Both the position numbers and the translations under genes were made by a program. Below the pieces are notes generated by a model. The model was not told the origin of the DNA. It did not search any database and saw only the letters and a program-made list of their open reading frames with translations. From the sequence record PV806339.1: 60,026 nt of DNA. One strand, 5' to 3'. Each line of letters opens with the position of its first letter. Position 1 is the first letter of the stretch. Below are positions 1 through 60,026 of the stretch, in pieces. Origin of the DNA: a phage.

Positions 1-288
1 ATGGCCGAGCCGATAATCAGAGAATCGAAGGTCGAAAAGCGCTGCTGCGAATACGCGCAGGGGCGCGGGTGGTGGGTGTCAAAATTCACCTCCCCCGGCA
101 AAAAAGCCGTCCCGGATCGCGTGCTGATCCGTGGCGGCATTGTGCTTTTTATCGAATTCAAACGCCCCGGCGAAGAACCAACGGCGCAGCAGTATCACCG
201 CCACAAGGAAATGCGTAAGGCCGGGGCTAACGTGACATGGGTGGACAATTTTGCAGACTTTAAAAACTACATTATCGCCTTTGAGTAG
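1..288 (+). CDS. VRR-NUC family nuclease
   Basis: 95-aa ORF. The core VPDRVLI...LFIEFKRPG looks like the PD-(D/E)xK motif of VRR-NUC domains. It follows the polymerase gene across the window junction. Confidence 0.8.
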   Translation: MAEPIIRESKVEKRCCEYAQGRGWWVSKFTSPGKKAVPDRVLIRGGIVLFIEFKRPGEEPTAQQYHRHKEMRKAGANVTWVDNFADFKNYIIAFE

Positions 289-334
289 AGCGCTCGCGTA
301 CTGCCTGCGGACGGTTAAACTGAACCGCAGCGAC

Positions 335-1810
335 ATGCACGACTATCAGGACGAAGGCGTCCAGTTCATCAAAGACCATCCGTACTGCGGCATGTTCGTA
401 GACCTCGGCTTGGGTAAGACTGTCATGACCGGGACGGCCATGCTAGACCTGATCGCGGACGGCGAAATCAACAAAGTCCTCGTCGTCGCGCCGAAGCGAG
501 TGGCCCGTACCGGGTGGCCGACGGAATTCGACGAGTGGGGGCATCTGTGCTTCTACAAGATGTCGATTATCGCCGGAAACGCCAAAGAGCGCGCAGCGGC
601 CGCGAGTAAGGACTGTCACTTCTACACGATCAGCGTGGATAACATCGCGTGGCTATGTGAGCACTTCAAGACGAAATGGCCGTTCGACGCCGTGGTGCTG
701 GACGAGTCGAGCATGTTCAAATCCCACACCTCGCAGCGCTTCAAACTGCTGCGCCGGGTGCGGAAGTACATCAAACGGATCGTCGAGTTGACGGCCACGC
801 CTGCGGCCGAAGGGTACATGGGTATCTTCTCGCAAATTTACCTGCTGGACGAAGGCGAGCGCTTTGGCTCCACCATCGGCGGTTATCAGGAAAACTACTT
901 CACGCAGAACCGCTACAACTTCAAATGGAAACTTCGCCCCGGTGCGGAAGACGAGATTATTCGGAAGATTTCTGATATATGTTTAGTCATGAAAGCGGAA
1001 GACTACCTTGACATGCACGAACCGAATTTCGTTCCTGTCCCGGTCGAGTTAGACGGGGAGACGGCCGAGCGGTACCGCATGATGGAGGAAGAGAGCCTCG
1101 TCGAGATTATGCCGGACGATTTCGATGAACATCTGGATGACCCAATCGTGATCGAAGCGGAGCAGGCCGCGTCTTTGCAGTCGAAGCTATTGCAGATGTG
1201 CTCAGGCTTCATCTACGACACGAAAATCGTTGGCATAACGCAAGACGACAAGGTCATTAAGCAGAAGGACACGTACAGGCTGCACGACCTGAAATTCGAT
1301 GCACTGGAAGAACTACTGGAAACCACGCTGGCCGATAAAAACGTGCTGATCGCCTATCACTTCAAGCCGACCCTCGAACGACTGAAAGAGCGGTTTAAAG
1401 ATCTGGTGGTCATGGATGATGACGGTAAGTGCATCAAGAAGTGGAACGCCGGAAAGATTCGACTGCTGGCCGCGCACCCTCAGTCAGCGGGACACGGTTT
1501 AAACCTCCAGCATGGCGGCCACGTCATCGTCTACATCGACAATCCGTGGTCACTCGAACGCTTCCTGCAATTCAATGGCCGATTGCACCGTCAGGGGCAG
1601 AAGTACCCGGTTACGATCTACCAGTTCAAAGCCATGCTGCGAACACCGAACGGGCTTCTGGCCGAGACGGCGGACGACGTAGTCATACAGGCGCTGGTCG
1701 AAAAGGAAGACGTGCAGGACGCGTTCTTCGAACTGCTCGAACGTATCAAAGGGCGCATCAAACGCCGCAAGAAATCGAAAAATAAAGGGGTATGGGATGA
1801 CGAAGAGTAA
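335..1810 (+). CDS. SNF2-family helicase/ATPase
   Basis: DYQ..G region, Walker A GLGKTV, DExx box VLDESSMFK, C-terminal helicase motif HPQSAGHGLNLQ. The ORF opens at 251 but overlaps VRR-NUC. The first ATG after that gene's stop is 335, so the start is uncertain. Ends ...VWDDEE. Confidence 0.85.
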   Translation: MHDYQDEGVQFIKDHPYCGMFVDLGLGKTVMTGTAMLDLIADGEINKVLVVAPKRVARTGWPTEFDEWGHLCFYKMSIIAGNAKERAAAASKDCHFYTISVDNIAWLCEHFKTKWPFDAVVLDESSMFKSHTSQRFKLLRRVRKYIKRIVELTATPAAEGYMGIFSQIYLLDEGERFGSTIGGYQENYFTQNRYNFKWKLRPGAEDEIIRKISDICLVMKAEDYLDMHEPNFVPVPVELDGETAERYRMMEEESLVEIMPDDFDEHLDDPIVIEAEQAASLQSKLLQMCSGFIYDTKIVGITQDDKVIKQKDTYRLHDLKFDALEELLETTLADKNVLIAYHFKPTLERLKERFKDLVVMDDDGKCIKKWNAGKIRLLAAHPQSAGHGLNLQHGGHVIVYIDNPWSLERFLQFNGRLHRQGQKYPVTIYQFKAMLRTPNGLLAETADDVVIQALVEKEDVQDAFFELLERIKGRIKRRKKSKNKGVWDDEE

Positions 1811-2366
1811 TGCGCCACTGGCAACCCGGAATCGCCGCTCTAATGCGCCGGACGCCGATACCGAAGCGATGATCTTTCAGGGCTGCAACATCACGCAACT
1901 GGCGAAGCTGTTTCGCATGGAGCGCCGGGACATCACGCCGAAAATCATGGATGTCCCGCCTGTCGGCGAGCGTGGCGGGTACCCGATCTACGCGGTTCAC
2001 GAAGTGGCCCCGTACCTCGTTAAGCCGCTGTACGATGTCGAGACGTACCTGCGCCGCATGAATTTCAAGGATCTGCCGAAGGAGTTGTCGAAAGAGTTTT
2101 GGGCCGGGCAGCGTGCAAAGCAGGACTTCGACATCAAAGCGGGAAACCTGTGGGAAACCGAGAAGGTGATCGAGCACTTCGGCGAGGCGGTGAAGGTGCT
2201 GCGCATGTCGATGTTGCTCATTCCCGACACGCTGGCGCGTCAGGCCGGACTCAGCGAGCCGCAACGTCAGGTCATCACGTCATCCATTGACGCCATGCTG
2301 AACGACCTGTCGAGCGCGCTGATCGATAAGTTCAACGGCGACGAGGTGGATGACGATGAAGTTTAA
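1797..2366 (+). CDS. terminase small subunit, lambda Nu1-like
   Basis: The N-terminal winged-HTH-like segment NITQLAKLFRMERRDITPKIMDVPPVGERGGYPIYAVHEVAPYL parallels the lambda Nu1 N-terminus. It overlaps the start of the large terminase gene. Ends DDDEV. Confidence 0.7.
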   Translation: MTKSNAPLATRNRRSNAPDADTEAMIFQGCNITQLAKLFRMERRDITPKIMDVPPVGERGGYPIYAVHEVAPYLVKPLYDVETYLRRMNFKDLPKELSKEFWAGQRAKQDFDIKAGNLWETEKVIEHFGEAVKVLRMSMLLIPDTLARQAGLSEPQRQVITSSIDAMLNDLSSALIDKFNGDEVDDDEV

Positions 2367-4431
2367 GAGCATCGGGCAGATTATCAGTTCGGTGGCCGAG
2401 CAGTTACGGCCGCCAATGCGCATGACGGTGGCCGACGCGGCCGCCAAGTATCGCTACGTCAACCAACCCGGCGCATACGTCGGGGATTGGCTTAACTCGA
2501 CGACGCCGTACATGGTCGAGCCGATGAACATGATGAACAGCCGGGCGTACGACAAGATGGCCTTTGTCGGCCCGGCGCAGTCCGGTAAAACCGATGCGCT
2601 GATCCTGAATAGCATTGTCTATTCGGTGAAAGTTGACCCGATGGATCTGATGGTCTACTGCCCGACGTCAACGGCCGCGCGCGACTTCTCGATGCGACGT
2701 GTAGACCGTCTTCACCGCCATAGCCCGAAGGTGGGCGAAATGCTGATGAAGAACCGCGACGCCGACAACAAATTCGACAAACACTACGTCACAGGCATCA
2801 TCCTGACGTTGAGTTATCCGTCAGTAACCGAACTGGCCGGGCGTCCCGTTGGCCGCATCATCATCACCGACTACGACCGTATTGACGACGACATCGGTGG
2901 CGACGGTAACGCCTTCGACCTCGCATCAAAACGTACGACGACCTTCGGGTCGTTTGCCATGTGTGCAGCCGAGTCATCACCATCGCGCCCGATTAAAGAC
3001 CCAAGCTGGATTAAGCGCACGCCCCACGAAGCCCCGCCGTGTGACGGGATTGTCGGCCTGTACAACCGAGGCGACCGCCGCCGCTGGAAATGGCCGTGTC
3101 CGCATTGCGACCAGTATTTCGAAGGTACCTTCCAGCTTTTGAAGTGGAACACGAAAGACGCCGATGGCAACCCTCTAACCAACCTCGAAAAGTCGGAGAC
3201 AGTGCGCATGGCCTGTCCACACTGCGGCTGCGAAATAGACCCGGTTGATAAGTATGAAATGAACCTGTGGGGGATGTGGGTGCCGGAAGGCTGTCATGTC
3301 AACGAGTTGGGCCAACTGGCCGGGGTACCGATGCGCTCGTCGTTCGCGTCCTTCTGGCTTCGCGGAACGGCGGCCGCATTCATCACATGGCAGAAACTGG
3401 TTCTGAACTACCTCGATGCGATGGATGACTACGAGCGTACGATGTCCGAAGAGTCCTTGAAGAAATTCTGGAACAACGACATGGGCGAACCGTACGTGCC
3501 GAAGGCGATCGAGACGGTACGCGTTCCGGAAGCGCTGAAAGCCCGCGCCGAGAAGTGGCCGGAACAGACGGTGCCGAAGAATGTGCGGTTCTTGGCGGCC
3601 ACGGTGGACGTGCAGAAGCATAGCTTTGAAGTGTCGGTGCATGGCGTGGCCCCCGGCTACCCATTCGACACCTACCTGATCGACCGCTTCAACATCACGA
3701 AATCGCGCCGACTCGATGACGATGGCGACCCGAAAATCCTGCACCCGGGCGCGTACCTCGAAGATTGGGATCTCATTGAAACCGAAGTGATGAACAAGAC
3801 GTATCCGCTGTCCGATAATTCGGGCCGTTCGCTGCCGATCAAGATGACCGCGTGCGACTCCGGTGGTGAAGCCGGGGTAACGGGCAACGCGTACGAATTC
3901 TTCCGGAAACTGCGGAAGGAAGGGAAAACCGGGCGCTTCTGTCTGGTGAAGGGCGACCCGAAAGCGAACAACCCGCGCACCCGTGTAGCGCTACCGGACT
4001 CCAACCAGAAAGACAAGAAAGCCATCGCACGCGGCGACGTTCCGGTGCTGATGATTAACTCGAACGTGATGAAAGACAGCCTGAACGGCCGACTGGACGT
4101 CGTGGAGCCGGGCAAAGGCATGTACCACATCCCGGACTGGATGGGCGACGCGGTATTCGCCGAACTGTGTACGGAGACGCGTGACGAGAAAGGCTGGCAC
4201 AACCCATCCCACGCCCGAAACGAAACGTGGGACTTGGCATATTATTTATTGGGAATTTGCGTCAGTGGCCGCGTGCTCGGGATTGAGCAGATAGATTGGG
4301 ATAACCCGCCATCATGGGCGGCCGAGTGGGACGATAACAGCATGGTTATTTTACCGCAGAGCGATGAACCTATTGATGCACCGAAAGATACCGAATACAG
4401 TTTCGAGAAACTCGCAATGGCGTTAGCATAG
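2350..4431 (+). CDS. terL: terminase large subunit, lambda gpA-like
   Basis: 693 aa. Walker A VGPAQSGKT, paired CPHC motifs (CPHCDQYF, CPHCGCEI), and position between the TerS-like and W/portal-like genes. Confidence 0.9.
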   Translation: MTMKFKSIGQIISSVAEQLRPPMRMTVADAAAKYRYVNQPGAYVGDWLNSTTPYMVEPMNMMNSRAYDKMAFVGPAQSGKTDALILNSIVYSVKVDPMDLMVYCPTSTAARDFSMRRVDRLHRHSPKVGEMLMKNRDADNKFDKHYVTGIILTLSYPSVTELAGRPVGRIIITDYDRIDDDIGGDGNAFDLASKRTTTFGSFAMCAAESSPSRPIKDPSWIKRTPHEAPPCDGIVGLYNRGDRRRWKWPCPHCDQYFEGTFQLLKWNTKDADGNPLTNLEKSETVRMACPHCGCEIDPVDKYEMNLWGMWVPEGCHVNELGQLAGVPMRSSFASFWLRGTAAAFITWQKLVLNYLDAMDDYERTMSEESLKKFWNNDMGEPYVPKAIETVRVPEALKARAEKWPEQTVPKNVRFLAATVDVQKHSFEVSVHGVAPGYPFDTYLIDRFNITKSRRLDDDGDPKILHPGAYLEDWDLIETEVMNKTYPLSDNSGRSLPIKMTACDSGGEAGVTGNAYEFFRKLRKEGKTGRFCLVKGDPKANNPRTRVALPDSNQKDKKAIARGDVPVLMINSNVMKDSLNGRLDVVEPGKGMYHIPDWMGDAVFAELCTETRDEKGWHNPSHARNETWDLAYYLLGICVSGRVLGIEQIDWDNPPSWAAEWDDNSMVILPQSDEPIDAPKDTEYSFEKLAMALA

Positions 4432-4441: not shown

Positions 4442-4696
4442 ATGACACCCGAAGAATGCCGCGCGCAATATCGCCTCATGCTCAAAGAAGCGATGGATGC
4501 GTACCACCAATTAAACCTCGGCGGCTCGGTGCGCGTCGTGGTGGATCAGAACAGTGAACGCGTGGAATATACCGCAGCGAACCGACAAAGCCTATGGGCC
4601 TACATCGTTCGACTGCAAAACGCGATTAATTCGGACAACCCTTGCGCGGCCTTCATGGGCCTACCAAGTTCACCAGCAGGATTCTTATTCCCATGA
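4442..4696 (+). CDS. head-tail joining protein, lambda gpW-like
   Basis: 84 aa. The pattern ...GGSVRVVVDQNSERVEYTAANRQSLWAYIVRLQ parallels gpW (...[25 protein letters not shown]). Sits between terL and the portal gene. Confidence 0.65.
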   Translation: MTPEECRAQYRLMLKEAMDAYHQLNLGGSVRVVVDQNSERVEYTAANRQSLWAYIVRLQNAINSDNPCAAFMGLPSSPAGFLFP

Positions 4697-6372
4697 CCGA
4701 GAAAAAGAGAAGCACTACACAACGGGCGAAGAAAGCGGCAAAGACCGCCGACGTCGCTACGTTGGACGCCACGCCGCAGAATCCTTCGGCACTCGGTGGC
4801 GGCTTAGAGGGGGCTGAACGGAACACGCGTGAAATGTTCCGCTGGACGCCTGCCATCATTTCACCAGACCAGCAGATCGCCCAAGACGGTACGCTGGCGC
4901 TTTCGCGTGCGCAGGACATCGTACAGAACGATGGCTACGCATTTGGCGCGGTGGCGATTCACCGTGACAGCGTCGTCGGCTCGCAGTACAAACTCAACTC
5001 GAAACCGAATTCGCTGGTGCTCGGCGCGCCGGAAGGTTGGGCGGATGAATTTCAGGAGGTAGTCGAGGCGCGCTTCAACATGGTGGCCGAGTCTCCTGAA
5101 AACTGGTTCGATGCCCGCCGGATGAACACGCTGACCGGGCTTGTCCGTCTGGCCGTTGGCGGCTTCATCATGACCGGGGAAGTTCTGGCGTCATGCGAGT
5201 GGATGAAGCCGAAGGGAACCCGTATGCAGCGCCGTCCGTTCGGCACTGCGATCCAGATGATTTCGCCGTACCGTCTGTCCAACCCGGACAACATCATGGA
5301 CGACAAGTATCTGCGCTCCGGCGTCAAACTGGATGAAATGGGCGCTCCGATCGGCTACTGGCTGCGTAAAGCGTTCCCGGGCGACCCGACTGACCTCGAA
5401 CAATGGCGATGGGAATACCAGCCCGCTCGCTTCGATTGGGGCCGACGTCGGATGATCCACATCATCGAAGCGCTGCTGCCGGGCCAGACTCGCGGTATCA
5501 GTGAAATGGTCGCAGCGTTGAAGCAGATGAAGATGACCCGAAACTTTCAGGAAGTCACGCTGCAAAACGCCATCGTCAACGCGACCTACGCGGCCGCCAT
5601 CGAATCAGAATTGCCGTCTGACGTGGTCTTCAATCAGATGGGGATGGGACAGACGCCGTTCGGCGACATCCTGAAAACCTACATGGGGAGTCTGGCCGAG
5701 TACATCGCCGGATCGAAAAACATCGCAATCGACGGGGCGAAAATCCCGCACCTGTTCCCCGGTACGAAACTGAAAATGCAGCCCGCAGGAACGCCGGGCG
5801 GAGTCGGAACCGATTATGAAGAATCGTTGCTCAGGAACATCGCCGCATCACTCGGCCTTTCGTACGAGCAGTTCAGCCGCGACTATACGAAAACGAACTA
5901 CTCTTCTGCCCGCGCTTCGATGGCTGAAACGTGGAAGTACATGGAAAGCCGTAAAAAGCTGGTAGCCGACCGTTTCGCGTCGATGATTTATACGTTGTGG
6001 TTGGAAGAAGAGGTTAACGCTGGTAATGTTCCACTGCCGCCGGGCTTCACTTGGCGCGACTTCTACGACCCGATGAAACGTGACGCGCTTTGCAACGCAG
6101 AATGGATCGGCGCGAGTCGCGGCCAGATCGACGAGAAGAAAGAAACCGAAGCCGCTATCCTTCGCATCAAGAATGGCCTGTCAACGTACGAAGCAGAAAT
6201 CGCCCGCCTCGGTGGGGACTTCCGCGAAGTATTCAAACAGCGCGCCCGCGAAGAAGGCATCATCAAAGATTTGGGCCTTGATTTCTCCGGCAAGATGGTC
6301 GAAGGGACGGAGGCAAGCGGTTCAACTGGCAGCACTGGCTCGGACAACAACGAAGAGGATACGAAGGAATGA
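4693..6372 (+). CDS. portal protein, lambda gpB-like
   Basis: About 560 aa, placed after the W-like gene and before the S49 protease gene, as in lambda. Start taken at the ATGA overlap with the W-like stop (the ORF opens at 4642). Confidence 0.8.
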   Translation: MTEKKRSTTQRAKKAAKTADVATLDATPQNPSALGGGLEGAERNTREMFRWTPAIISPDQQIAQDGTLALSRAQDIVQNDGYAFGAVAIHRDSVVGSQYKLNSKPNSLVLGAPEGWADEFQEVVEARFNMVAESPENWFDARRMNTLTGLVRLAVGGFIMTGEVLASCEWMKPKGTRMQRRPFGTAIQMISPYRLSNPDNIMDDKYLRSGVKLDEMGAPIGYWLRKAFPGDPTDLEQWRWEYQPARFDWGRRRMIHIIEALLPGQTRGISEMVAALKQMKMTRNFQEVTLQNAIVNATYAAAIESELPSDVVFNQMGMGQTPFGDILKTYMGSLAEYIAGSKNIAIDGAKIPHLFPGTKLKMQPAGTPGGVGTDYEESLLRNIAASLGLSYEQFSRDYTKTNYSSARASMAETWKYMESRKKLVADRFASMIYTLWLEEEVNAGNVPLPPGFTWRDFYDPMKRDALCNAEWIGASRGQIDEKKETEAAILRIKNGLSTYEAEIARLGGDFREVFKQRAREEGIIKDLGLDFSGKMVEGTEASGSTGSTGSDNNEEDTKE

Positions 6373-7699: not shown

Positions 7700-8119
7700 A
7701 TGAATCTTTTGACTATGATGGCCGCCTCCAGCCTGCCTAACTATCTGGCTGGAAACGGCGACCTCGGCTCTTGGGAGCCAACCCAAATCTTCGCAGGTGA
7801 AGCGGATATTGTGACCGAAGGCGGTGCCGCTGGCGCTGACATCGAGATCTATCAGGTTATCGCGAAGAACGCCGCTGGCGCTATGGTGCCACATGACCCG
7901 ACTGCGACCACTGGCACGTCTCCGGACGAAGTACCAGCACCGCAGTCTGTGGCTATCGGTATCGCAGCGCAGCCCGCGAAGTCCGGCCAGAACGTGCCGT
8001 ACTACATCGGTGGTGTATTCAACCACGCTGCCCTCGGTTGGCACGCGTCGCTTGATACGCTGGCAAAACGTCAGGCGGTCTTCGACCGTACTAACATCCA
8101 CATCGGCAATCTGTACTAA
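7700..8119 (+). CDS. head decoration protein, lambda gpD-like
   Basis: 139 aa between the protease and capsid genes. The C-terminal pattern VAIGIAAQ...YYIGGVFNHAALGW...AVFDRTNIHIG parallels gpD. Confidence 0.7.
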   Translation: MNLLTMMAASSLPNYLAGNGDLGSWEPTQIFAGEADIVTEGGAAGADIEIYQVIAKNAAGAMVPHDPTATTGTSPDEVPAPQSVAIGIAAQPAKSGQNVPYYIGGVFNHAALGWHASLDTLAKRQAVFDRTNIHIGNLY

Positions 8120-50036: not shown

Positions 50037-50048
50037 AAGGGGGCAACG

Positions 50049-50640: not shown

Positions 50641-50647
50641 GCCTTTC

Positions 50648-51587: not shown

Positions 51588-51620
51588 TTTTGCCCGTTTT
51601 GGCCGTTTTCTTGCGTTTCA

Positions 51621-51636
51621 ATAACAAATTTGTTAT
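51621..51636 (+). promoter_or_regulatory. perfect 16-bp palindrome ATAACAAATTTGTTAT (operator candidate)
   Basis: Lies just upstream of the putative promoter of the XRE gene. A further half-site TTTGTTAT lies at 51667-51674, just after the -10 element. Confidence 0.6.
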
Positions 51637-51654
51637 ACGTCTTGCCCCGAATCC

Positions 51655-51663
51655 TGCTATAAT
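51655..51663 (+). promoter_or_regulatory. extended -10 promoter TGcTATAAT for the XRE-family gene
   Basis: TGCTATAAT lies 34 nt upstream of the ATG at 51697. The -35 element is poor. Confidence 0.45.
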
Positions 51664-51696
51664 TTATTTGTTATAAACAGCAAAAATAGGTCAAAA

Positions 51697-51984
51697 ATGC
51701 AGCACGATGAATGCCGTGAAACGTTGATGGATTTCAAACGACAATTACAGACACATTTGAAGGCGATTTTACGTCGTCAGGGGGTCACACAGAGCGCGCT
51801 TGCGACGATGATCGGCGTACACCAGTCAAGATTAAGTTTCATGCTTAACAGTGACGCAGACAGAGTTTCGATCGATAAACTCATTGAAGCGATAGTGAAA
51901 CTGGACGGCGTGTTTATGGTGAAAATCGGAGATCAAACAGACATAAATCGAGTGCGGTACAAGGAGTGCGAAGACAACGTTTGA
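51697..51984 (+). CDS. XRE-family HTH DNA-binding protein
   Basis: 95 aa. HTH segment VTQSALATMIGVHQSRLSFMLN. Confidence 0.75.
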   Translation: MQHDECRETLMDFKRQLQTHLKAILRRQGVTQSALATMIGVHQSRLSFMLNSDADRVSIDKLIEAIVKLDGVFMVKIGDQTDINRVRYKECEDNV

Positions 51985-51990
51985 CAGACA

Positions 51991-52021
51991 AAAATAAGGC
52001 CGGATTTCCCGGCCTTTTTAT
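51991..52021. terminator. bidirectional terminator between convergent genes
   Basis: AAGGCCGG-atttc-CCGGCCTT, flanked by an A-run upstream and a T-run downstream. Confidence 0.85.
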
Positions 52022-52024
52022 CGA

Positions 52025-54610
52025 CTAAACTTCGTCTTCATCGTCAAACGGGTCTGGCTTTTTGCCGACCAGTTTTTCGACTTCTGCGTCATGCCGTTTT
52101 AACGTAGTCTGCACCCACGACGAGTTAAGTTTCCCCGCGTCGTCGAATGCCCCTTTGACCCGCTTCCTGACATAAACGCGGCCAGATTCGCCGCCAAATT
52201 TGACCACGCCGCCCGGCTTGAAGCCCAATTCCATAAGCATGTTTTTCAGGCGGTTCGTCTTCGGCATTTCCACGTCTGTCATTTCGAGGAATGCGTTTTT
52301 CAGGGACGGCACGAAGATGACGTCGCGGTGTACGCCCGGCGTCGTTCCGTCACGAAGCATTTGTGCGATTGCGCCTTCCACGCCATCGTCAGACGCGTCG
52401 GCCATGACCGCGAATGCTTCGGTGTCCTGCGGTGCGTGTCCTTTGGCATCGAAATCCTTTCCGATCTCCCAATCGAGGAACCACTTTTTGATAGCAGGTG
52501 CGTGGTTTTCGATTGCCCGGTACACGTTTTTGAAGAAGCGCGCGCGTTCAGTCTTCGACCCGTAAACCCGCTCCATGTCCAGATGATTTTCTGCCTGCGT
52601 GGACACCACCAGATAACGACGCTGGTTTTCATCGAGTGGCAATGCGTTGAAGTGGTTGGTGAACATCATTTTGCTGCTGGTGTTCACGACTTCCTTCGGC
52701 TTGCGGCCCTTTGGCTCAATCTGGAAGCGATCGTTTGTGATGAATTCCTTCTGGCGTTCCACCGCGCTGTACCGATCGCCTTTGTCGTAGATCTCTTCCA
52801 CGATTTTCAGGATGTGGCCCTCGGCCCAATCGCTGAAACGGCCATTCATCACGGTGTTTGACACATAGCCCACGTTCGACGCGCCGAGCATCCGCGACAT
52901 GATGATGCCGAGCGTCGTTTTACCAGAACCATGCGCACCACGGATCAGAAGCGAGTAGTTGATGCGTTTCGTTGGGTGCTGAATAACCCACGCCATCCAG
53001 TCCAGAACATAGCGGCGTTCCTTCTCGTTCGGGAAAAGCACGATGAAGAAGTCTTTGATGATCTCCAGCGCCTTTTTGTCGTACGGAGAAAGGTCAGTCG
53101 CGGCCTCCGGAATGGATTCAGGGTCAAAAGAGTTCAGCCACGTACGCCCACGGTCGTCAATAAAGAATTCCGGCCCGATCACCCCCTCTTTCGGCTTCCA
53201 CACAGATTCCGGCATGTCACCGTGCATCGCCGGGTAGTACATCGCGTCCCAAACGATAGGAACCGGGCGGACTACCGACGCATAGTGGACAGGCTTGAAG
53301 GCTTCTTCCTCAAACACGCATTTTTTCGCAAAAGCGACGTCGAAAGCGCCTTTTGTGATGTAATCGCCCGTGGTTTTTTCGATAAAACTGTCATTTGCCT
53401 TCGAGAAAACGAAGTTTTTCAGCCACTGCGGAGTCTCTTTTGACCCGTAATCGAAGCCCAAAAGCTCCCTTTTGTCACCAGCAGTGAGGCGGAAGTTGTT
53501 GATCCTGCGGTATGCTTCGGCCGCAATCTGGACGATGGCCTTGCGGGTAAGCCCGAAAATCTGCGCTTTTTTGAATGATTCGGCCCACGCATTCCAGTCA
53601 TTCGCCTCGGTACACTCGGCGAAAGCCTCGCGGTACTCGATGGCGCGTTCTTCCTGCTCGGCTTTCTCGATGTCCTGCACTTCTTTGATGATGGTGCCGA
53701 GCGTGATCAGTCGAGTCGAGTTGTGCGCGAAGCCCTTATCCCACTTGTATTCGAAATCACCTTCGTCGAAGTTGTGTGCCTGCATGGCCCATTCGCGGGC
53801 AATGGCCTTCGCCTCGTCCTGATCGCGGCAGGAAATTTGCAGCGCGGCCAGTACGGTGATGTAGTTCTCGTAATCTTCCGGGTTCGGGTATTTCAGGACG
53901 ATGTCGCGCAGTTCATCGTACGTGCCGTCCCACTTTTTGACGTCAGACAGCGCGGCCCAATCGTCATCGTCTGCCGAACCGATAGACTCATAACCGTTCA
54001 TTGGCCGTTTGACCATTGTCCAGCCCAAGTCCTTCGCGTATCGGTCGAATTCGGCGGCGATCTCGCGAGCGGTATCGAGGCTGATCTCTTCGAGGTCAAG
54101 GTCGGCGGCGTTGTTCAGCGGATTCTCGCCATCAATCCAGTAATAGTCGCGCTTGGTGTCCGGGTGGATACCGTACGCAACGAACTGCTGGCCGTCGGCG
54201 AGGATTTCAACTGCATGGCGCTGGCCGAAGTCGTCTTCCCACACGCCGGATTTCACTTTGGCGAACGGGTTTTCGGTTCGGTACAGGTAGAGTTTCTTCG
54301 GCTCCCGGCCGATACGACATGGCGCTGCACCGACGTTCTCGGCGATCCAGTCTGCCATGTGCGCCACGGCGTCTTCATCGTAAACGTCGATGTCAACCGC
54401 CGGGGTGTATTTGGTCAGAATCCCGATGCCGTTATTCGTATAGCGTTTCGCCCAACGCTGGATCTGCTCCTTATCATTGATTGTTCGTTCCCAATCTTCA
54501 CCGATAGGGCGTTTGCCCGCACCCTTCTTATCGGCGTCCGGGGCGTAGATAGGTACGATGGTGTACCCATTCCCCCAAAGCGTTTCGCCGTACTCTTGCC
54601 AGTAGTTCAT
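52025..54610 (-). CDS. bifunctional primase-polymerase / P-loop helicase (prim-pol plus P4/D5-type NTPase)
   Basis: 861 aa. N-terminal prim-pol-like region (GYTIVPIY...GKRPIGEDW), Walker A GAHGSGKTTLG, Walker B-like ILKIVEE. Ends FDDEDEV. Confidence 0.85.
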   Translation of the reverse strand: MNYWQEYGETLWGNGYTIVPIYAPDADKKGAGKRPIGEDWERTINDKEQIQRWAKRYTNNGIGILTKYTPAVDIDVYDEDAVAHMADWIAENVGAAPCRIGREPKKLYLYRTENPFAKVKSGVWEDDFGQRHAVEILADGQQFVAYGIHPDTKRDYYWIDGENPLNNAADLDLEEISLDTAREIAAEFDRYAKDLGWTMVKRPMNGYESIGSADDDDWAALSDVKKWDGTYDELRDIVLKYPNPEDYENYITVLAALQISCRDQDEAKAIAREWAMQAHNFDEGDFEYKWDKGFAHNSTRLITLGTIIKEVQDIEKAEQEERAIEYREAFAECTEANDWNAWAESFKKAQIFGLTRKAIVQIAAEAYRRINNFRLTAGDKRELLGFDYGSKETPQWLKNFVFSKANDSFIEKTTGDYITKGAFDVAFAKKCVFEEEAFKPVHYASVVRPVPIVWDAMYYPAMHGDMPESVWKPKEGVIGPEFFIDDRGRTWLNSFDPESIPEAATDLSPYDKKALEIIKDFFIVLFPNEKERRYVLDWMAWVIQHPTKRINYSLLIRGAHGSGKTTLGIIMSRMLGASNVGYVSNTVMNGRFSDWAEGHILKIVEEIYDKGDRYSAVERQKEFITNDRFQIEPKGRKPKEVVNTSSKMMFTNHFNALPLDENQRRYLVVSTQAENHLDMERVYGSKTERARFFKNVYRAIENHAPAIKKWFLDWEIGKDFDAKGHAPQDTEAFAVMADASDDGVEGAIAQMLRDGTTPGVHRDVIFVPSLKNAFLEMTDVEMPKTNRLKNMLMELGFKPGGVVKFGGESGRVYVRKRVKGAFDDAGKLNSSWVQTTLKRHDAEVEKLVGKKPDPFDDEDEV

Positions 54611-54888
54611 TCAAGGATTTCCCCTGTTTCGCTGTCCGTTTTGATCCATGAAGGGTTAGTCAGCCAATGCGGACGGATGCCGCAGTGAGGGACAGCTTTG
54701 CAAACTTTTTCGGCCACGCTGCTCGTTACGTTGTTCTGCACGGCCCATAACAATGTCGGGTAACTGATCTTCGCTGCCTTCGCCAGTTCGGCCATTCTGG
54801 CGTTCGGGTCTACCTCCAAAGCCGCTTGCATCATGAGAAATTTGACCCGCATCCGGTCGTCGTTTAAAGCCCAATCTGGAAATCGCAT
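54607..54888 (-). CDS. Cro/YdaS-like HTH protein
   Basis: 93 aa. HTH-like MAELAKAAKISYPTLLWAVQN. GAGGG SD. ATGA-coupled to the primase gene. Confidence 0.65.
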   Translation of the reverse strand: MRFPDWALNDDRMRVKFLMMQAALEVDPNARMAELAKAAKISYPTLLWAVQNNVTSSVAEKVCKAVPHCGIRPHWLTNPSWIKTDSETGEILE

Positions 54889-54930
54889 AGTGATGCCCTC
54901 GCGTAATGTGCGCGTGTTATAGATTTGCGG

Positions 54931-54959
54931 ATATTATATCCGGGCTTGACATCTGTCAA
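54931..54959 (-). promoter_or_regulatory. sigma70-type promoter for the HTH-primase operon
   Basis: Minus strand reads TTGACA-GATGTCAAGCCCGGATA-TAATAT (17-bp spacer). The -35 element is part of the palindrome CTTGACAtcTGTCAAG. Confidence 0.7.
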
Positions 54960-54968
54960 GTTGGCCAG

Positions 54969-55029
54969 TTATTCGGGTACCAAAGGCGCTTTATGTCCGG
55001 AAAACAAAGGGCTTGCGGTACCCGAATAA
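54969..55029. repeat. 13-bp perfect inverted repeat TTATTCGGGTACC (35 nt) GGTACCCGAATAA
   Basis: Arms at 54969-54981 and 55017-55029, between the divergent promoters. Confidence 0.9.
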
Positions 55030-55048
55030 AAAATTTCTAAAAAAGTGT

Positions 55049-55078
55049 TTGACAGTGATTCGGCGTTTGGGCCATACT
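55049..55078 (+). promoter_or_regulatory. sigma70-type promoter for the rightward replication/structural block
   Basis: TTGACA-GTGATTCGGCGTTTGGGC-CATACT (18-bp spacer), 53 nt upstream of the ATG at 55131. Confidence 0.55.
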
Positions 55079-55130
55079 TCATCCCGTCAACACGACACGA
55101 CCTTTTAAACACTTAACGGAGTAGAAAATT

Positions 55131-55547
55131 ATGTCTGGTATCTTCGAACAACTGCTGGCTGAACAACAAAAAACCAACACCCTGCTGGAAGGCGTTCTGG
55201 CAGCACTGAAAGGCGGCGCGGTGAACACTTCCGCTGACGCTGGTAGCGAAACTACTGAAAAAACCACCACCACCAAAGGCGGTGCTAAGGGCGGCGCGAA
55301 AGGCGGTGCAGGTAAAACCGAAACTAAAGCGGTCAAGCCTAAACACACCAAAGACGAAGTAGTCGCGGCTGTCGTTGCGGTTAAAGACGCGTTCGGCGCG
55401 CCGGAAGCCAAGAAAATCACCGCACACTTCGGCCTCGCCAAAGTCGCGGAAGCGAAGGAAGAACACTTCGACGAAATCGTCGAAATGTGTGAAGCCAAAC
55501 TGGCTGAAAAAGATGAAGGCGGTAACGGCGAAGAAGACGACGTTTAA
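55131..55547 (+). CDS. hypothetical protein with a Lys/Gly/Thr-rich low-complexity centre
   Basis: 138 aa. GGAG SD. First gene after the rightward promoter and followed directly by a terminator. Ends GEEDDV. Confidence 0.75.
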   Translation: MSGIFEQLLAEQQKTNTLLEGVLAALKGGAVNTSADAGSETTEKTTTTKGGAKGGAKGGAGKTETKAVKPKHTKDEVVAAVVAVKDAFGAPEAKKITAHFGLAKVAEAKEEHFDEIVEMCEAKLAEKDEGGNGEEDDV

Positions 55548-55562
55548 TCTTTCGCCCCGCAT

Positions 55563-55587
55563 CGGCTCCCTTCGGGGGGCCGTTTTT
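55563..55587 (+). terminator. rho-independent terminator (UUCG loop) after the first rightward gene
   Basis: CGGCTCCC-TTCG-GGGGGCCG followed by TTTTT. Confidence 0.85.
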
Positions 55588-55608
55588 CACACCAACGGAG
55601 AGGCAATT

Positions 55609-55938
55609 GTGACCAGCATTACTTTCACCAACGTAGCAACATCCGGCGGCGCAGTTCTCGCGCGCACTTGGGCGGAGTTTCGTTTTCAAATCGGTGATCG
55701 CGATGTGCTGTTCAGAGTTACTTCACCTGTTTCGAAACACGAAGCGCCGCTGCTCGTAACCCATGCTGCATCGGGCTATCGAGTGTGCGACGTCTGGTGG
55801 GACGACGTGGCGAAGACTCGCTTTAACGCAGGCCGCAATAATTACAGCGGGGCAGGCGCTAGGGCATTGGTAGCGACGATTGAGCGAGTCGGCGAACACC
55901 GATTCCTCAATGCGATAAAGGCGTATCCGAATGAGTAG
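55609..55938 (+). CDS. hypothetical protein
   Basis: 109 aa from the GTG 55609, preceded by GGAGAGG. The longer ORF from 55375 overlaps the upstream gene and the terminator. Confidence 0.6.
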   Translation: MTSITFTNVATSGGAVLARTWAEFRFQIGDRDVLFRVTSPVSKHEAPLLVTHAASGYRVCDVWWDDVAKTRFNAGRNNYSGAGARALVATIERVGEHRFLNAIKAYPNE

Positions 55939-57268
55939 TAAGTCACTGTTAGTCCGCATCATGCGGGAATTCGGCGGTGGCGGCCACTCAATCTTCGCGC
56001 CTTCTGCGTCAGCGCGTTGGATCGCATGTTCTGGAAGCCTGATAGCCGGGCTTTTCGAGCATGACGAAACCATCTACGAGGCGGCGGAAGGCACGGTGGC
56101 CCACGGAATCGCCGAACAATGGCTGCGAACGGATGTCCGGCCAACCCATTTAATCGGTACGGTCGAGACGATCACGGAAGGCGGTGTCAGCCATGACATC
56201 CCCATTACTCGGTCAATGCTCGACTCGGTTCAGGAGTACGTTGACTGGTGCCGATTTGAAGAGGGTGAAATGTTCACGGAAATCCGGGTCTGGTTTACCG
56301 ACCTGATGCCGCGAGCGAACCCGGATGAACCTGACGAAGACCCGATCGAGTTTGTCGCTCAGGGCGGAACGGCGGATAATATCATCATCCGCGACCGAAC
56401 CTTGATCGTGACCGACCTGAAATACGGGACTGGCGTTCAGGTTTTCGCGGAAGGGAACCCGCAGGCGCTACTTTACGCGTACGGTGCGTACCGCGCTTTC
56501 TCGGATGAATACGAGTTTGACCGTATTGTCATCCGGATCGCGCAGCCGAGGCTCGACCATTTCGATACGTGGGAAATCACGATTGACGAATTGTTAGAGT
56601 TCGCGGAGTATGCCCGGGAGCGAATTGCAGCGGCATGGAGCCTTACCGCGCCGCGCCGCGCATCCCTGAAAGGGTGTCGCTTTTGCCGGGCAGCACATAA
56701 CTGCGCAGCGATAGCGTACATGATGGAATGCGCAGTGGGCGGGGACGTGGAATTCCTTGAAGCTGAATTCGGGGAGGAAGAAATGTCAGTATTGCGTGAT
56801 GCGCTGGCGCAGGAATATAAGTTCCGGCGTGCGCAGTTCGGAAACCTGACAACCGAGCAGATGGCGAAGATCCTGCCATACCGCAAGGTGGTCGAAAACT
56901 GGTTCTCGCGCCTTGACTTCGAACTGGAACGCCGCGCAATGAACGGCGAGAAGGTACCGGGTCAAAAGCTGGTGGAGTCGCGGACAAACCGTAAATTCGC
57001 CAACGAGAAAGATGCGATCGCGCTGTTCCGGTTCCTCGATATTGACGAGGACAAGTACATCGAACGCAAACTGCGTACCCCGGCGCAGATGGAAGAAGTG
57101 CTTAGGGATGAATTGGGCGTGTCCCGGGCTGGCGCGCCGAACATCATCGCGGGGATCGTCTACAAGCCGGAAGGCAAGCCGACACTGGCACCGCTGACCG
57201 ATAAGCGGCCACCACTGGACGGCAAGTATTCCGGGGCGTGGGACGACGAAGATGATGACGAAGTGTAA
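55931..57268 (+). CDS. PD-(D/E)xK nuclease, DUF2800 / Cas4-like
   Basis: 445 aa. PSASARWIACSGS and AAEGTVAH at the N-terminus, the VTDLKYGTG catalytic motif, and the Cys cluster CRFCRAAHNCAA. Ends WDDEDDDEV. Confidence 0.85.
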   Translation: MSSKSLLVRIMREFGGGGHSIFAPSASARWIACSGSLIAGLFEHDETIYEAAEGTVAHGIAEQWLRTDVRPTHLIGTVETITEGGVSHDIPITRSMLDSVQEYVDWCRFEEGEMFTEIRVWFTDLMPRANPDEPDEDPIEFVAQGGTADNIIIRDRTLIVTDLKYGTGVQVFAEGNPQALLYAYGAYRAFSDEYEFDRIVIRIAQPRLDHFDTWEITIDELLEFAEYARERIAAAWSLTAPRRASLKGCRFCRAAHNCAAIAYMMECAVGGDVEFLEAEFGEEEMSVLRDALAQEYKFRRAQFGNLTTEQMAKILPYRKVVENWFSRLDFELERRAMNGEKVPGQKLVESRTNRKFANEKDAIALFRFLDIDEDKYIERKLRTPAQMEEVLRDELGVSRAGAPNIIAGIVYKPEGKPTLAPLTDKRPPLDGKYSGAWDDEDDDEV

Positions 57269-57311
57269 ACCCGTAAAACCGTAGAAAGTAAACCCGTAAA
57301 ACAGTAAACCG
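57265..57311 (+). repeat. GTAAACCCGTAAAAC direct repeats in the SSB 5' UTR
   Basis: Copies at 57265-57279 and 57288-57302, plus the partial copy agtaaaccg at 57303-57311. They end 12 nt before the SSB ATG. Confidence 0.9.
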
Positions 57312-57322
57312 AGGATATTAAG

Positions 57323-57919
57323 ATGGCCGAGAAATTAGTCCCTGCGAAAAAAGTCAAGAATGGCGTGCTGTACAAATCTGGTCACATCAAGATTTCTAAC
57401 GTACGTGCTTCTTACCCGCACCTCGATAAGCCGTACGGCGGTGAAGACGGCGGCGAGCCGAAATACTCGCTGACGCTTTTGATGCCGAAAGACAGCCACG
57501 GCGAGATCGAGAAAATCATCCGTGAGCAGATCGAAGTCACCAAGAAGAACCACAAGACAGGCGCGCTGAAAGTCGCCCCGTCCATGTTGTTCATCAAAGA
57601 CGGTGATACCGATTTTCCGGATAAACCGGAATGCGAAGGGATGTGGGTTATCTCCGCACGCGAAAGCAAACGCCCGGATGTGTATAACATCGAGCGCGAA
57701 GAGTTGACTACCTCTTCCGAAATTCTGGAAGAGATCTACGGTGGTTGTTGGGTGTCGGTTGTCATCCGTCCGTGGTCGCAGGAAAACAAATTCGGCAAAC
57801 GCGTTAACGCCAACCTGATTTCCGTTCTGAAACGCAAAGACGACGAGCCGTTCGGTGAAGGTCGTGTGGACACGTCCGACGCGTGGGATGAAGACGAAGA
57901 TTGGGAAGACGAAGTGTAA
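57323..57919 (+). CDS. single-stranded DNA-binding protein, DUF2815 type
   Basis: 198 aa. ISNVRASYPHLDKPYGG...KYSLTLLMPKD matches the DUF2815 pattern. Sits between the DUF2800 gene and polA. Acidic tail ends WEDEV. Confidence 0.8.
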   Translation: MAEKLVPAKKVKNGVLYKSGHIKISNVRASYPHLDKPYGGEDGGEPKYSLTLLMPKDSHGEIEKIIREQIEVTKKNHKTGALKVAPSMLFIKDGDTDFPDKPECEGMWVISARESKRPDVYNIEREELTTSSEILEEIYGGCWVSVVIRPWSQENKFGKRVNANLISVLKRKDDEPFGEGRVDTSDAWDEDEDWEDEV

Positions 57920-57942
57920 TGTACGCCCTCGGGCGGTAATAC

Positions 57943-57968
57943 AAGGCCCGCCGCGTGCGGGCTTTTTT
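57943..57968 (+). terminator. rho-independent terminator after the SSB gene
   Basis: GCCCGC-cgcgt-GCGGGC followed by TTTTTT. Confidence 0.9.
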
Positions 57969-57985
57969 CATACAGGAGCGTTAAC

Positions 57986-60025
57986 GTGACCGATTGCATT
58001 AATCTGGACTATGAATCCCGAAGCCGGGTGAACCTTAAAACGAACGGATTCGACCGATATTCGAACGACGAATCGACTAAAATTCTGATGGGCGCATGGT
58101 CTATCAATGGCGGAGCGGTGCAGCACATCGACCTTCACCGAGGGAAGAAGTTGCCCGGCGAACTGCGTGAAGCGCTGGAAGACCCGGCCGTCGAGAAGTG
58201 GGCCTTTAACGCGCAGTTCGAACGCGTAATGACCCGCCGGGTGCTCGGCATCAAGACGCCGTATAAATCGTGGCGCTGTACGATGGCGCTGGCGTACATG
58301 CTCGGCTTTGCTGGCGACCTTCTGGCCGTCGGCACGCAGATCGGCTTGCCGGAAGAGAAACTGAAAGACCCGGAAGGCAAGCGCCTGATCGACCTGTTCA
58401 GCAAGCCGCAGCGTGTCACGAAGAAAAACCCGTTTGAGTGGCGCAATGAAGCGACCGACCCGGAAGACTGGTGGCACTTCTGCAAATATAACGTGCGGGA
58501 CGTTGAAACCGAACTGGCGATTAAAGCCCGCCTGATGCGGTACCCGGTTCTGGATGCCGAATGGGACATGTACGCGCTGGATCAGTTCATCAACGATACA
58601 GGCGTGATGATTGACCGCGAATTCGCGTACTCGGCGCTGGCGCTCGCAGAGGCGCGCAAACCGCAGATTATCGAAGAAATGGCCGACATCACTGGCCTGA
58701 ACAACCCCAATTCCCCGGCTCAGTTAACACCGTGGCTCAAAGAGCGCGGCTATCCGTTCAGCGACCTTCGCAGTGACACCGTCAACAAGGTCATTCGCGA
58801 AGCCGATGAAAACGGCGTTGACCCGGATGCGATCCGCGTGCTGCGGATGCGCCTGAATAGCGCGAAAAACTCCCTGTCAAAATATCAGACCATGATTGAC
58901 GCGGCTGGCGAAGATGGCCGATTCCGCTTCTCGCTGCAATTCGCCGGGGCAAGCCGCACGAACCGTTGGGCTGGCCGCCGTATTCAGACTCAAAACCTGC
59001 CGAGAACGCCGAAGCTGATCGAGGACGTGACCGACCTGTCCATCGTTAACAAGATGATCCACCAGCGCGACCTTGATGCGTTGACGCTGTATGTGGGCGA
59101 GCCGATGGACGCGCTGGTGGGCTGCATTCGCTCCGCCTTCATCCCGACGCCGGGCCACAAGTTCATCGTTGCCGACCTGTCGTCCATCGAATCCGTGGTC
59201 ATCGGGTGGCTGACAAACTGCAAATGGTTCATGGACACGCTGGCGGCCAAGCACGACCTTTACCGTTCATTCGCGGCTCACTGGCTGCACCTGCCGTACG
59301 AAGAAACGAAGCCACACCGCCCGAAAGCCAAACCTGCTACCCTCGGCGCGGGCTATCGCCTCGGCGGCGGCCACATGGACGAGAATGGCAAGAAGACCGG
59401 ACTGTGGGGCTACGCCGAAAACATGGGCGTACACATGACGCAGAAAGAGGCAGAAGAGTCGGTACAGGCGTTCCGCGACCTTTGCCCGGAAATTGTGCGC
59501 GCATGGTATGACCTCGAAAACGCGGTATTCAAGGTTATCCGTACCCGTCAGGCCGTCGTATGGGGCTGTCTGATCATCGAATACACAAAACCTTTCCTGA
59601 CCATCCGTCTGCCGTCTGGCCGCAAAATGTATTACTTCCGTCCGCGTCTGGTCGAGCGCCAGATGACCGTTCAGAAAGGGCCGAAGAAGGGTGAGAAGTA
59701 CACAAAGACCAACTTCCAGTACGAAGGCAAGGTGGAAGGCAGCGGCACCAAGTGGGGCAAGATTTACAGCCACGGCGGTAAGCTGGTGGAAAACATCGTT
59801 CAGGCGCTGGCGCGCGACGTGCTCGCCGAAGGTCTGAAAAAGGCGCACCGCATGGGCTTCCGGATCGTCATGCACATCCACGATGAAATCGTAACCGAAG
59901 TGCCGGAAGACAGCCCGCTGACCGTGGACGACCTTATTTCCTGCATGGCGGCCGAACTACCGTGGGCCGAAGGGCTACCGCTTGGCGCTGCCGGGTGGGA
60001 AGGCTATTTCTACCGTAAGGATTAA
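57986..60025 (+). CDS. family A DNA polymerase with 3'-5' exonuclease domain
   Basis: 679 aa from a GTG with an AGGAG SD. Exo I motif LDYES, motif A ADLSSIESVV, motif B KPATLGAGYRLGG, motif C HIHDEIV. Confidence 0.9.
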   Translation: MTDCINLDYESRSRVNLKTNGFDRYSNDESTKILMGAWSINGGAVQHIDLHRGKKLPGELREALEDPAVEKWAFNAQFERVMTRRVLGIKTPYKSWRCTMALAYMLGFAGDLLAVGTQIGLPEEKLKDPEGKRLIDLFSKPQRVTKKNPFEWRNEATDPEDWWHFCKYNVRDVETELAIKARLMRYPVLDAEWDMYALDQFINDTGVMIDREFAYSALALAEARKPQIIEEMADITGLNNPNSPAQLTPWLKERGYPFSDLRSDTVNKVIREADENGVDPDAIRVLRMRLNSAKNSLSKYQTMIDAAGEDGRFRFSLQFAGASRTNRWAGRRIQTQNLPRTPKLIEDVTDLSIVNKMIHQRDLDALTLYVGEPMDALVGCIRSAFIPTPGHKFIVADLSSIESVVIGWLTNCKWFMDTLAAKHDLYRSFAAHWLHLPYEETKPHRPKAKPATLGAGYRLGGGHMDENGKKTGLWGYAENMGVHMTQKEAEESVQAFRDLCPEIVRAWYDLENAVFKVIRTRQAVVWGCLIIEYTKPFLTIRLPSGRKMYYFRPRLVERQMTVQKGPKKGEKYTKTNFQYEGKVEGSGTKWGKIYSHGGKLVENIVQALARDVLAEGLKKAHRMGFRIVMHIHDEIVTEVPEDSPLTVDDLISCMAAELPWAEGLPLGAAGWEGYFYRKD

Positions 60026-60026
60026 C

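Follow-up and report, generated by a model that had tools for sequence, protein, structure and literature searches.

The phage sequence record PV806339.1 is a single stretch of 60,026 bp, and this whole stretch, at its full length, is called the window here. It opens with the genes for a stand-alone nuclease and an SNF2-family helicase, which are followed on the same strand by the terminase, head, neck, tail and tail-tip genes, a run of tandem genes and a lysis cassette. A leftward block of mostly early genes comes next, then a rightward block of small genes that runs up to a cohesive-end (cos) site, and last the remaining replication genes, the final one of which encodes a family A DNA polymerase (PolA). 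An earlier reading of the letters alone, referred to below as the original prediction, had described this arrangement as a mosaic, within one permuted genome, of a lambda-type head, a tail tip of the gene transfer agent (GTA) type and a replication module. Our comparisons indicate, with a probability of roughly 0.97, that the window holds a single Chivirus (Casjensviridae) genome, complete and of unit length, from a siphophage predicted to be virulent and to depend on flagella, and that it is written as an opened circle. The gene layout has already been published for the chi-like family, and nothing in the observation of it is new.

The assignment to Chivirus rests on nucleotide comparison. 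The three thirds of the window were searched by megablast against 50,697 phage records and matched more than 100 chi-like phages, and the matched records are classified under Caudoviricetes, Casjensviridae and Chivirus. Positions 1-25000 reached 99.3% identity with BSPM4 and 97.5-99.2% with many chiviruses of Salmonella, Escherichia and Klebsiella, including Utah and Phraden; positions 25001-35026 were 97.4% identical to ST-374 and ST-101; and positions 35027-60026 were 97.5% identical to SeZq-1 and 93.8% to Chi. Four complete genomes were compared with the window, the Salmonella phages SeZq-1 (MH791396), BSPM4 (KY620117) and Chi (JX094499/KM458633) and the Escherichia phage Utah (KY014601); Phraden is a Klebsiella phage. 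All four have the gene content and order of the window in common, as well as the sequence and position of cos and the spacing between the PolA gene and the nuclease gene that follows it. They are 94-98% identical to it across 97-99% of its length, and no window base is left unaligned by all four. None of them is identical to it overall, the differences being small ones of alleles and cassettes. Expressed as identity x coverage, the values are 0.960 for SeZq-1, 0.941 for Utah, 0.939 for BSPM4 and 0.927 for Chi, and this range (0.927-0.960) lies clearly above the roughly 70% nucleotide similarity applied at genus level. The 0.927 obtained against JX094499 is below the 95% rule for the species Chivirus chi, on what is a rough measure; the same rough measure gives 0.960 against SeZq-1. 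The BLASTn comparison with reference phage genomes therefore placed the window in Chivirus from end to end, and the kinship with chi-like siphoviruses that the original prediction had suggested proves correct and strong, Chivirus genomes being 93-99% identical at the nucleotide level.

Is the genome, then, a recent assembly of foreign parts? The alternative that holds up best, itself very improbable, is a recent inter-family recombinant in which a lambda-like head, a GTA-derived tip and a foreign replication module were joined not long ago. The combination and its order are present in every chivirus compared and also in the distant Burkholderia phages AH2 and BcepNazgul, whose replication and virion genes are syntenic with capsid proteins only 40-47% identical (Hendrix et al., PMC4342425). 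It is true that the head genes belong to lambda Pfam families, that BR0599, DUF2163 and DUF2793 of the hub and fibre are not lambda families, and that pairwise similarity to lambda ends after gene E, all of which would suit such an origin. However, the lambda tip and that of the gene transfer agent RcGTA are structural homologues with the same gene arrangement, and the G+C content varies little (0.52-0.62) and does not change sharply where head genes give way to tail genes or tail genes to replication genes. Among the 200+ matching records, no relative more than 90% identical in the head genes was found with a lambda M-L-K-I-J tip or with another replication module. We conclude that the three-module "mosaic" is an old, stable, family-wide architecture and not a recent event. 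The word mosaic in the sense of a recombinant has to be given up, and the contrast between a lambda head and a GTA tail tip should not count as evidence of recent recombination.

Exchange on a smaller scale is suggested within the genus Chivirus itself. BSPM4 is 99.9% identical to the window in the head genes and 79% identical at 52-54 kb, where the primase is encoded and where Utah and SeZq-1 reach 99.6-99.7%. The region at 28-30 kb varies between 80 and 95% among the four chiviruses. Segments in which the closest relative shifts include 28001-30000, 38001-40000 and 48001-50000, and some segments are 80-94% identical to all four. For discovery the finding carries little weight. It shows that the chi-like phage and the self-closing window had been rightly recognised from the raw sequence in the original prediction. 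The genome contributes one further combination of alleles to a genus that has been well sampled and serves in Salmonella biocontrol work.

The termini of the virion DNA can be located by comparison with published work. The ends of Chi were determined experimentally as 12-base 5' single-stranded extensions, 5'-GGTGCGCAGAGC (Hendrix et al., PMC4342425), and those of Utah are the same (Leavitt et al., PMC5374247). This sequence has one exact match in the window, at the syntenic site. Counting from 51084 to 60026 gives 8943 bases, and window base 1 aligns to Utah 8944. When the window is rotated to 51084, it forms a single colinear chain with Utah 1-59024 and covers 98.8% of Utah and 99.6% of Chi. 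The site lies about 10.7 kb upstream of the terminase genes; in the published account, too, over 10 kb of DNA that holds the replication genes separates the left cos end from the terminase genes (PMC4342425). In the Utah record the two halves of the cos-spanning open reading frame (ORF), Utah_01, are annotated at the two ends, and a remark there says that joining of the cohesive ends is required. Since the published fixed 12-nt cohesive end is present at 51084-51095, the virion DNA of this phage would have unique ends, and position 51084 is most likely its true left end.

The term permuted genome accordingly suits the stored record, which is a rotated circle, and does not suit the virion DNA. 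That the genome is truly circularly permuted and terminally redundant through headful packaging, with any start point equally valid, is hardly credible. Although the window begins at an arbitrary point within the replication module and closes on itself, its large terminase belongs to the gpA type of lambda, where this enzyme cleaves at cos; the cohesive end determined experimentally for Chi and Utah occurs once, in the syntenic position; and no terminal duplication or direct repeat was found at the window ends. We therefore prefer a unit-length genome with fixed cohesive ends, and the record is best re-opened at the cohesive end, 51084, for comparison and annotation.

At the boundary of the record, the ORF with the DNA_pol_A domain stops at 60025 and a 95-aa ORF begins at position 1. 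Base 60026 is thus a one-base spacer between them, equal to the spacer in Chi, Utah and BSPM4. By BLASTN, window 50137-60026 aligns to Chi 20279-30175 and window 1-29220 to Chi 30176-59404, which are exactly contiguous. A 400-bp probe laid over the junction of 60026 and 1 aligned without a gap in Utah (100% identity), SeZq-1 (100%), BSPM4 (99.5%) and Chi (97%). The gapless probe, the matching gene spacing and the rotated colinearity bear out the original prediction that positions 60026 and 1 are contiguous, and its claim that the window is one whole genome holds as well, for the window closes on itself and is colinear with Utah and Chi. On these alignments we judge the junction to be real and the window to be exactly one genome length. 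That the junction is an assembly artefact or mis-join, and the window not a single complete genome, has next to no chance of being right: the sole point in its favour is that the boundary sits between two genes, whereas the sequence across it is 97-100% identical and gapless in four independently sequenced genomes, the Utah assembly is a linear contig whose ends were confirmed by Sanger run-off, and the gene spacing is the same in the relatives.

Several points weigh against reading the window as a complete chivirus genome with the gene functions given here. The top whole-genome match, among the four genomes compared, is only 96%. The ends of this isolate are drawn from sequence identity with Chi and Utah, and the functions of the replication and tail proteins are likewise taken from homologues. 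The distal tail protein matches DUF2460 at 19.2 bits, compared with a cutoff of 30.4, over 42 residues only. The 95-aa nuclease gave no Pfam VRR_NUC match even at E<=10 and only a weak one to Hjc, and above threshold it matched none of the nuclease families in Pfam.

The life cycle of such a phage can be pictured from published work on Chi, Utah, YSD1, Enc34 and lambda. The virion DNA would be linear with 12-nt 5' overhangs, by analogy with Chi and Utah. After injection, the ends would anneal and the DNA circularise, restoring the small ORF that spans cos. Replication would be carried out by the phage's own primase-helicase, family A polymerase, T7 gp2.5-type single-stranded DNA-binding protein, DUF2800 nuclease, VRR-NUC junction nuclease and SNF2 helicase, whose genes sit between cos and the terminase genes. 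Concatemers would be cut at cos by the gpA-type terminase and the DUF1441-type small subunit and packaged into a lambda-type head made with a B-like portal, an S49 protease-scaffold, a gpE-type capsid and gpD-type cement trimers. The tail would end in a cone of distal tail protein, g13/gpL-like hub and J/g15-like protein, and the flexible C-terminal part of the J-like protein would form a single long fibre that grips the rotating flagellum.

Table 1. Features of the 60,026-bp window, in genome order, with the matching PolA boundary in three relatives. Coordinates are window positions unless a relative is named.
Feature	Position	Strand	Evidence or remark
VRR-NUC-type stand-alone nuclease, 95 aa	1-288	+	PDB 4QBO 5e-11, 4QBN 5.6e-8; PHROG 93 endonuclease 7.5e-27
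SNF2-family helicase	335-1810	+	SNF2-rel_dom 4.3e-10 (39.6 bits, cutoff 24.9), ResIII, Helicase_C
Small terminase subunit, DUF1441 type	1797-2366	+	DUF1441 5.9e-12; PHROG 141 terminase small subunit 6.6e-59
Large terminase, lambda gpA type	2350-4431	+	GpA_ATPase 1.7e-65, GpA_nuclease 4.3e-60; lambda A pairwise E=1.6e-16
gpW-type head-tail adaptor	4442-4696	+	gpW 4.4e-10
Lambda-family portal	4693-6372	+	Phage_portal_2 5.2e-86; lambda B 38% identity, E=1e-99
S49 prohead protease with C-terminal Nu3-like scaffold	6369-7685	+	Peptidase_S49 3.6e-33; lambda C 2.3e-46
gpD-type decoration (cement) protein	7700-8119	+	HDPD 1.2e-8
gpE-type major capsid protein	8132-9196	+	Phage_cap_E 7.2e-48
DUF7443 neck protein	9258-9551	+	Pfam
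Neck 2 stopper	9554-9919	+	Chi structure 8VHX "Neck 2"
Tail completion protein, 208 aa, Z position	9919-10545	+	PHROG 27 "tail completion"
Tail terminator	10542-11045	+	Chi structure 8VHX "Tail terminator"
Tail tube protein, C-terminal Ig-like domain	11059-12198	+	Big_1 2.2e-12; Utah: major tail protein
Tail assembly chaperone pair	12295-12998	+	Pre_tape_measure 3e-54; G-like product 12295-12756, -1 frame extension to 12998
Tape measure protein, 1431 aa	12991-17286	+	TMP_3 7.6e-26
Distal tail protein, 562 aa	17292-18980	+	Full-length match to Chi 8VJH_B "Distal tail protein"
Baseplate hub 1, RcGTA g13 / lambda gpL position	18990-19808	+	BR0599 9.7e-13 (48.7 bits)
Two small tail-assembly ORFs, 76 and 79 aa	19820-20289	+	PHROG 1180 and 1196, "tail assembly chaperone"
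Baseplate hub 2 / J-like protein, 1296 aa	20279-24169	+	Phage-tail_3 1.5e-10
DUF2793 tail fibre-type protein	24169-24909	+	DUF2793 2.2e-22; PDB 8GTC_S 3.1e-3
Four tandem related genes, 320-409 aa	24919-25926, 25937-26899, 26913-27932, 27947-29176	+	No Pfam match
731-aa ORF after the four tandem genes	within block 24919-31381	+	No family match
Lysis cassette	31429-32880	+	Endolysin, spanins, lysis proteins A/B annotated in Chi, Utah, BSPM4
Leftward block, mostly early genes without assigned function	32881-44827	-	Pfam; includes DUF7768 protein
Phosphoadenosine phosphosulfate (PAPS)-reductase (NinC-like) protein	33620-34603	-	Pfam
Dam N6-adenine methylase	38400-39086	-	Dam family 1.1e-30
RdgC	42237-43313	-	Pfam
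Rightward block of small genes up to cos	45238-50975	+	ORF list; syntenic with Chi and Utah
84-aa ORF across cos	50979-51233	+	ORF list; intact only with ends joined (circular or concatemeric DNA)
cosN cohesive-end sequence GGTGCGCAGAGC	51084-51095	+	One exact match in window, syntenic site
RGTTACAW repeat cluster, eight copies	51308-51587	both orientations	Non-coding, 220-500 bp right of cos
Helix-turn-helix (HTH; Cro/C1-type) DNA-binding protein	51697-51984	+	HTH_37 1.5e-10, HTH_3 4.5e-6
Primase-helicase, Prim-Pol + PriCT_2 + DUF5906	52025-54610	-	Pfam; DNA primase in Chi and Utah annotation
Small protein	54607-54888	-	Utah_04 annotation: transcriptional regulator; no Pfam match
DUF2800 PD-(D/E)XK (Cas4-like) nuclease	55931-57268	+	DUF2800 2.1e-70, PDDEXK_1 1.2e-4
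T7 gp2.5-type single-stranded DNA-binding protein (formerly DUF2815)	57323-57919	+	Enc34_ssDNA-bd 7.7e-31
Family A DNA polymerase	57986-60025	+	DNA_pol_A 5.9e-13; Utah: DNA polymerase I
PolA end / next gene start, Chi	30174 / 30176		One-base spacer
PolA end / next gene start, Utah	8942 / 8944		One-base spacer
PolA end / next gene start, BSPM4	8588 / 8590		One-base spacer

The head and packaging genes were assigned by a Pfam scan for families and by direct pairwise comparison with lambda proteins from NC_001416. The matches for gpA, gpW, the portal, the S49 protease, gpD and Phage_cap_E all exceed the curated Pfam cutoffs. Pairwise similarity to lambda is significant for A, W, B, C, the Nu3 part and E, with the order conserved, and beyond these genes none was detected. 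Residues 234-414 of the S49 protease align to lambda Nu3 (7.8e-9). The capsid protein matches YSD1 6XGP, Chi 8VJI and lambda gpE 7VI9 (3.8e-26) in the PDB, and the virion proteins solved for Chi and YSD1 match their counterparts in the window from end to end. The YSD1 homologue of the decoration protein is structurally gpD-like, and the YSD1 structure paper defines a "lambda/chi-like" capsid class (PMC7385642). The small terminase subunit gave neither a Phage_Nu1 match in Pfam nor pairwise similarity to lambda Nu1. Even with the limit set at E<=10, the four genes after E matched none of the lambda families for FI, FII, Z or U; in particular Phage_attach (FII), Minor_tail_Z and Phage_tail_U were not matched at this level, at which lambda's own proteins, run as a control, match strongly. 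A solved homologue of the 208-aa protein in the Z position was not found in the PDB. Proteins with roles equivalent to FII, Z and U are nevertheless judged to be present on the basis of PHROGs and the Chi structure entries.

The lambda order that had been proposed for this region thus stands for A, W, B, C/Nu3, D and E, and for Nu1, FII, Z and U it is reduced to matches of position, not of family. The window shares with lambda the gpA terminase, gpW, the B portal, the S49 protease C with a Nu3-like C-terminus, gpD and gpE in the same order, together with 5' cohesive ends and a G/GT-type chaperone pair. In contrast with lambda, its small terminase subunit is of the DUF1441 type and not Nu1, about 10.7 kb of DNA that includes the replication genes separates its cos from the terminase genes, the positions of FI, FII, Z, U, V, M, L, K and I are without detectable sequence similarity, and the phage would be virulent and flagellotropic.

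Relative to the tail assembly chaperone gene, the -1 frame stays open at least between 12690 and 12998, which is consistent with a frameshift product of the lambda G/GT type, and Utah annotates the chaperone as a joined two-piece coding sequence. A canonical slippery heptamer for the G/GT frameshift was looked for and not identified. In the tail tip, no RcGTA chain was among the PDB matches of the distal tail protein. The N-terminal domain of hub 1 matches Phage_phiJL001_Gp84_N (formerly DUF2163) at 25.9 bits, just under the cutoff of 26. Its PDB matches are Chi 8VJH_D (BH1P gp27), JBD30 8RK3 "DUF2163", RcGTA 6TBA/6TEH (2.1e-4) and the R4C hub 8GTC (1.1e-3); the roseophage R4C and JBD30 are related phages in the RcGTA tail-tip comparison. 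The J-like protein matches Chi 8VJH_A over residues 1-1296 (2967 bits), and within it residues 1-763 align with the "Tip attachment protein J domain" of JBD30 (6.9e-139). Phage-tail_3 also occurs in lambda J, and the domain is not GTA-specific. The flexible C-terminal region of YSD1_29/BH2P is the long fibre that binds flagella (PMC12264135); by homology, the 1296-aa protein is the YSD1_29/BH2P homologue and its C-terminal part the predicted flagellum-binding fibre. No Pfam match was found for the 76- and 79-aa ORFs at the GTA g14 / lambda K/I position, and a g14-type NlpC/P60 peptidase was not found there. In RcGTA, g14 is a peptidase.

The original prediction had set a GTA-order tip, with a DUF2460-like protein, a DUF2163/BR0599 protein, a g15/J-like protein and DUF2793, in place of a lambda-type one. 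As in RcGTA, there is a hub that combines a DUF2163-type domain at its N-terminus with BR0599 at its C-terminus and matches 6TBA/6TEH, next to it the Phage-tail_3 J-like protein and after that the DUF2793 protein; DUF2460, the domain of a g12-type distal tail protein, stays below threshold, and g14 is absent. The tail fibre Rcc00171 of RcGTA carries DUF2793, and its phage homologues lie downstream of g12-g15 homologues (PMC5026251). Unlike RcGTA, the window has a distal tail protein whose 562 aa greatly exceed the 205 positions of the DUF2460 profile, a pair of ORFs (76 and 79 aa) in place of the g14-type peptidase, a J-like protein of 1296 aa with a long flexible terminal fibre, and a lambda-type head. 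With lambda it shares the cone of distal tail protein, hub and J-like protein with Phage-tail_3, and it differs in lacking an NlpC/P60 gpK. The L-K-I-J genes of lambda and g13-g14-g15 of RcGTA are arranged very similarly, with the same split of hub domains (PMC10721106), and the T1 structure paper sets the Chi tip beside those of lambda, T1, T5 and DT57C under lambda-like siphophages (PMC11945409). Because the lambda and RcGTA tips have the same arrangement and lambda J also has Phage-tail_3, a GTA-type tip is not an alternative machine. "GTA-type instead of lambda-type" was therefore overstated; the difference is one of degree, and published comparisons treat the Chi tip as lambda-like.

Four cysteines of hub 1, Cys146/Cys155 and Cys237/Cys244, form a CX8C...CX6C pattern that resembles Cys173/182/205/212 of lambda gpL, and a weak local alignment to gpL spans the second pair. 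An iron-sulfur cluster has been described in gpL/g13 (PMC10721106), and by this resemblance the hub 1 cysteines may bind one too.

The replication genes agree with the DUF2800-DUF2815-PolA-VRR-NUC-SNF2 set named in the original prediction, the VRR-NUC member being a probable one, assigned through PDB homology and the annotation of relatives and not through Pfam. The translation of the 95-aa nuclease shows a D39...E52-x-K54 motif. Its two PDB matches, stand-alone nucleases labelled "Nuclease" only in the search, are presumably the VRR-NUC proteins of known structure; in the BSPM4 and SeZq-1 records the orthologue bears the name VRR-NUC. The SNF2 helicase has an alternative TTG start at 251 in the Utah annotation. 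DUF2800, the gp2.5-type protein and the family A polymerase are adjacent on one strand (55931-60025), and the replication block is 99-100% identical to Utah and SeZq-1. The Enc34 homologue of the DUF2815 protein was shown to be a T7 gp2.5-type single-stranded DNA-binding protein, and the same paper lists the same replication module for a chi-like phage (PMC5686142). A survey of single-strand annealing proteins found the duf2800-gp2.5-polA module in many phages. Compared with that module, known from "Nazgul-like" and many other phages and characterised in Enc34, the window has the same genes in one rightward block, with the primase and the small regulator just upstream and nothing notable different.

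Between cos and the HTH gene lies the cluster of RGTTACAW repeats, which holds the repeat families D2-D4 and I8, I11 and I13. Five of the six exact copies of GGTTACAA in the whole 60-kb window fall in 51308-51587; six copies compare with 1.29 expected in the whole window, and none of 100 shuffles reached six. Chi, Utah and SeZq-1 carry the cluster at unchanged distances from cos, and it is absent near cos in BSPM4, which has no HTH gene, a divergent primase and terminase genes about 99.6% identical. Only a subset of chiviruses has the HTH gene together with its upstream sequence. No description of the cluster was found in the papers and annotated records consulted. The repeats may serve as origin iterons bound by the primase-helicase, as operators for the HTH protein encoded next to them or as a terminase site like cosB. 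The last of these is unlikely, since BSPM4 lacks the repeats despite its nearly identical terminase genes, which argues against a terminase-binding role. With the closest relative changing along the genome, the isolate is a candidate recombinant lineage; that it is an undescribed recombinant lineage within Chivirus and that the cluster is also a real undescribed cis element, both together, is a tentative proposal that we consider rather doubtful.

Among the remaining genes, the four tandem ones that follow DUF2793 are paralogous, with 25-37% identity and E-values from 5e-65 (second against third) to 2e-4. One relative annotates three of the four as carbohydrate-binding proteins. These genes and the 731-aa ORF after them presumably encode virion or tail accessory proteins. 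The Chi RefSeq record/JX094499 (NC_021315) is opened inside the 731-aa ORF, about 174 bp (window 29221-29394) are absent there, and only a shortened form of the ORF is left as its first gene, chi_001. The missing stretch agrees with the remark of Hendrix et al. on a missing 171 bp. The ends of that record were considered as cos and rejected; the record is artificially joined and without 171 bp (PMC4342425).

The lysis cassette was assigned by homology only, with no Pfam support in the window, and the proteins tested from the rightward block at 45238-50975 gave no Pfam matches. A tRNA scan of the window found none, as reported for Chi. The Chi orthologue of the Dam protein, chi_017, is called "phosphoadenosine phosphosulfate reductase" in RefSeq, and this looks like an annotation mix-up in the public record, the PAPS-reductase-like gene being at 33620-34603. 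Positions 11354-23828 of GU169904.1 ("Staphylococcus phage SA1", UNVERIFIED_ORG) hold chi-like DNA, 79% identical to the cos-proximal region, beside primase genes, and Listeria, Enterococcus and Staphylococcus records are also among the megablast matches of 60-80% identity. Such records may have been mislabelled or mixed, or the matches may be pieces of low identity that arose by chance.

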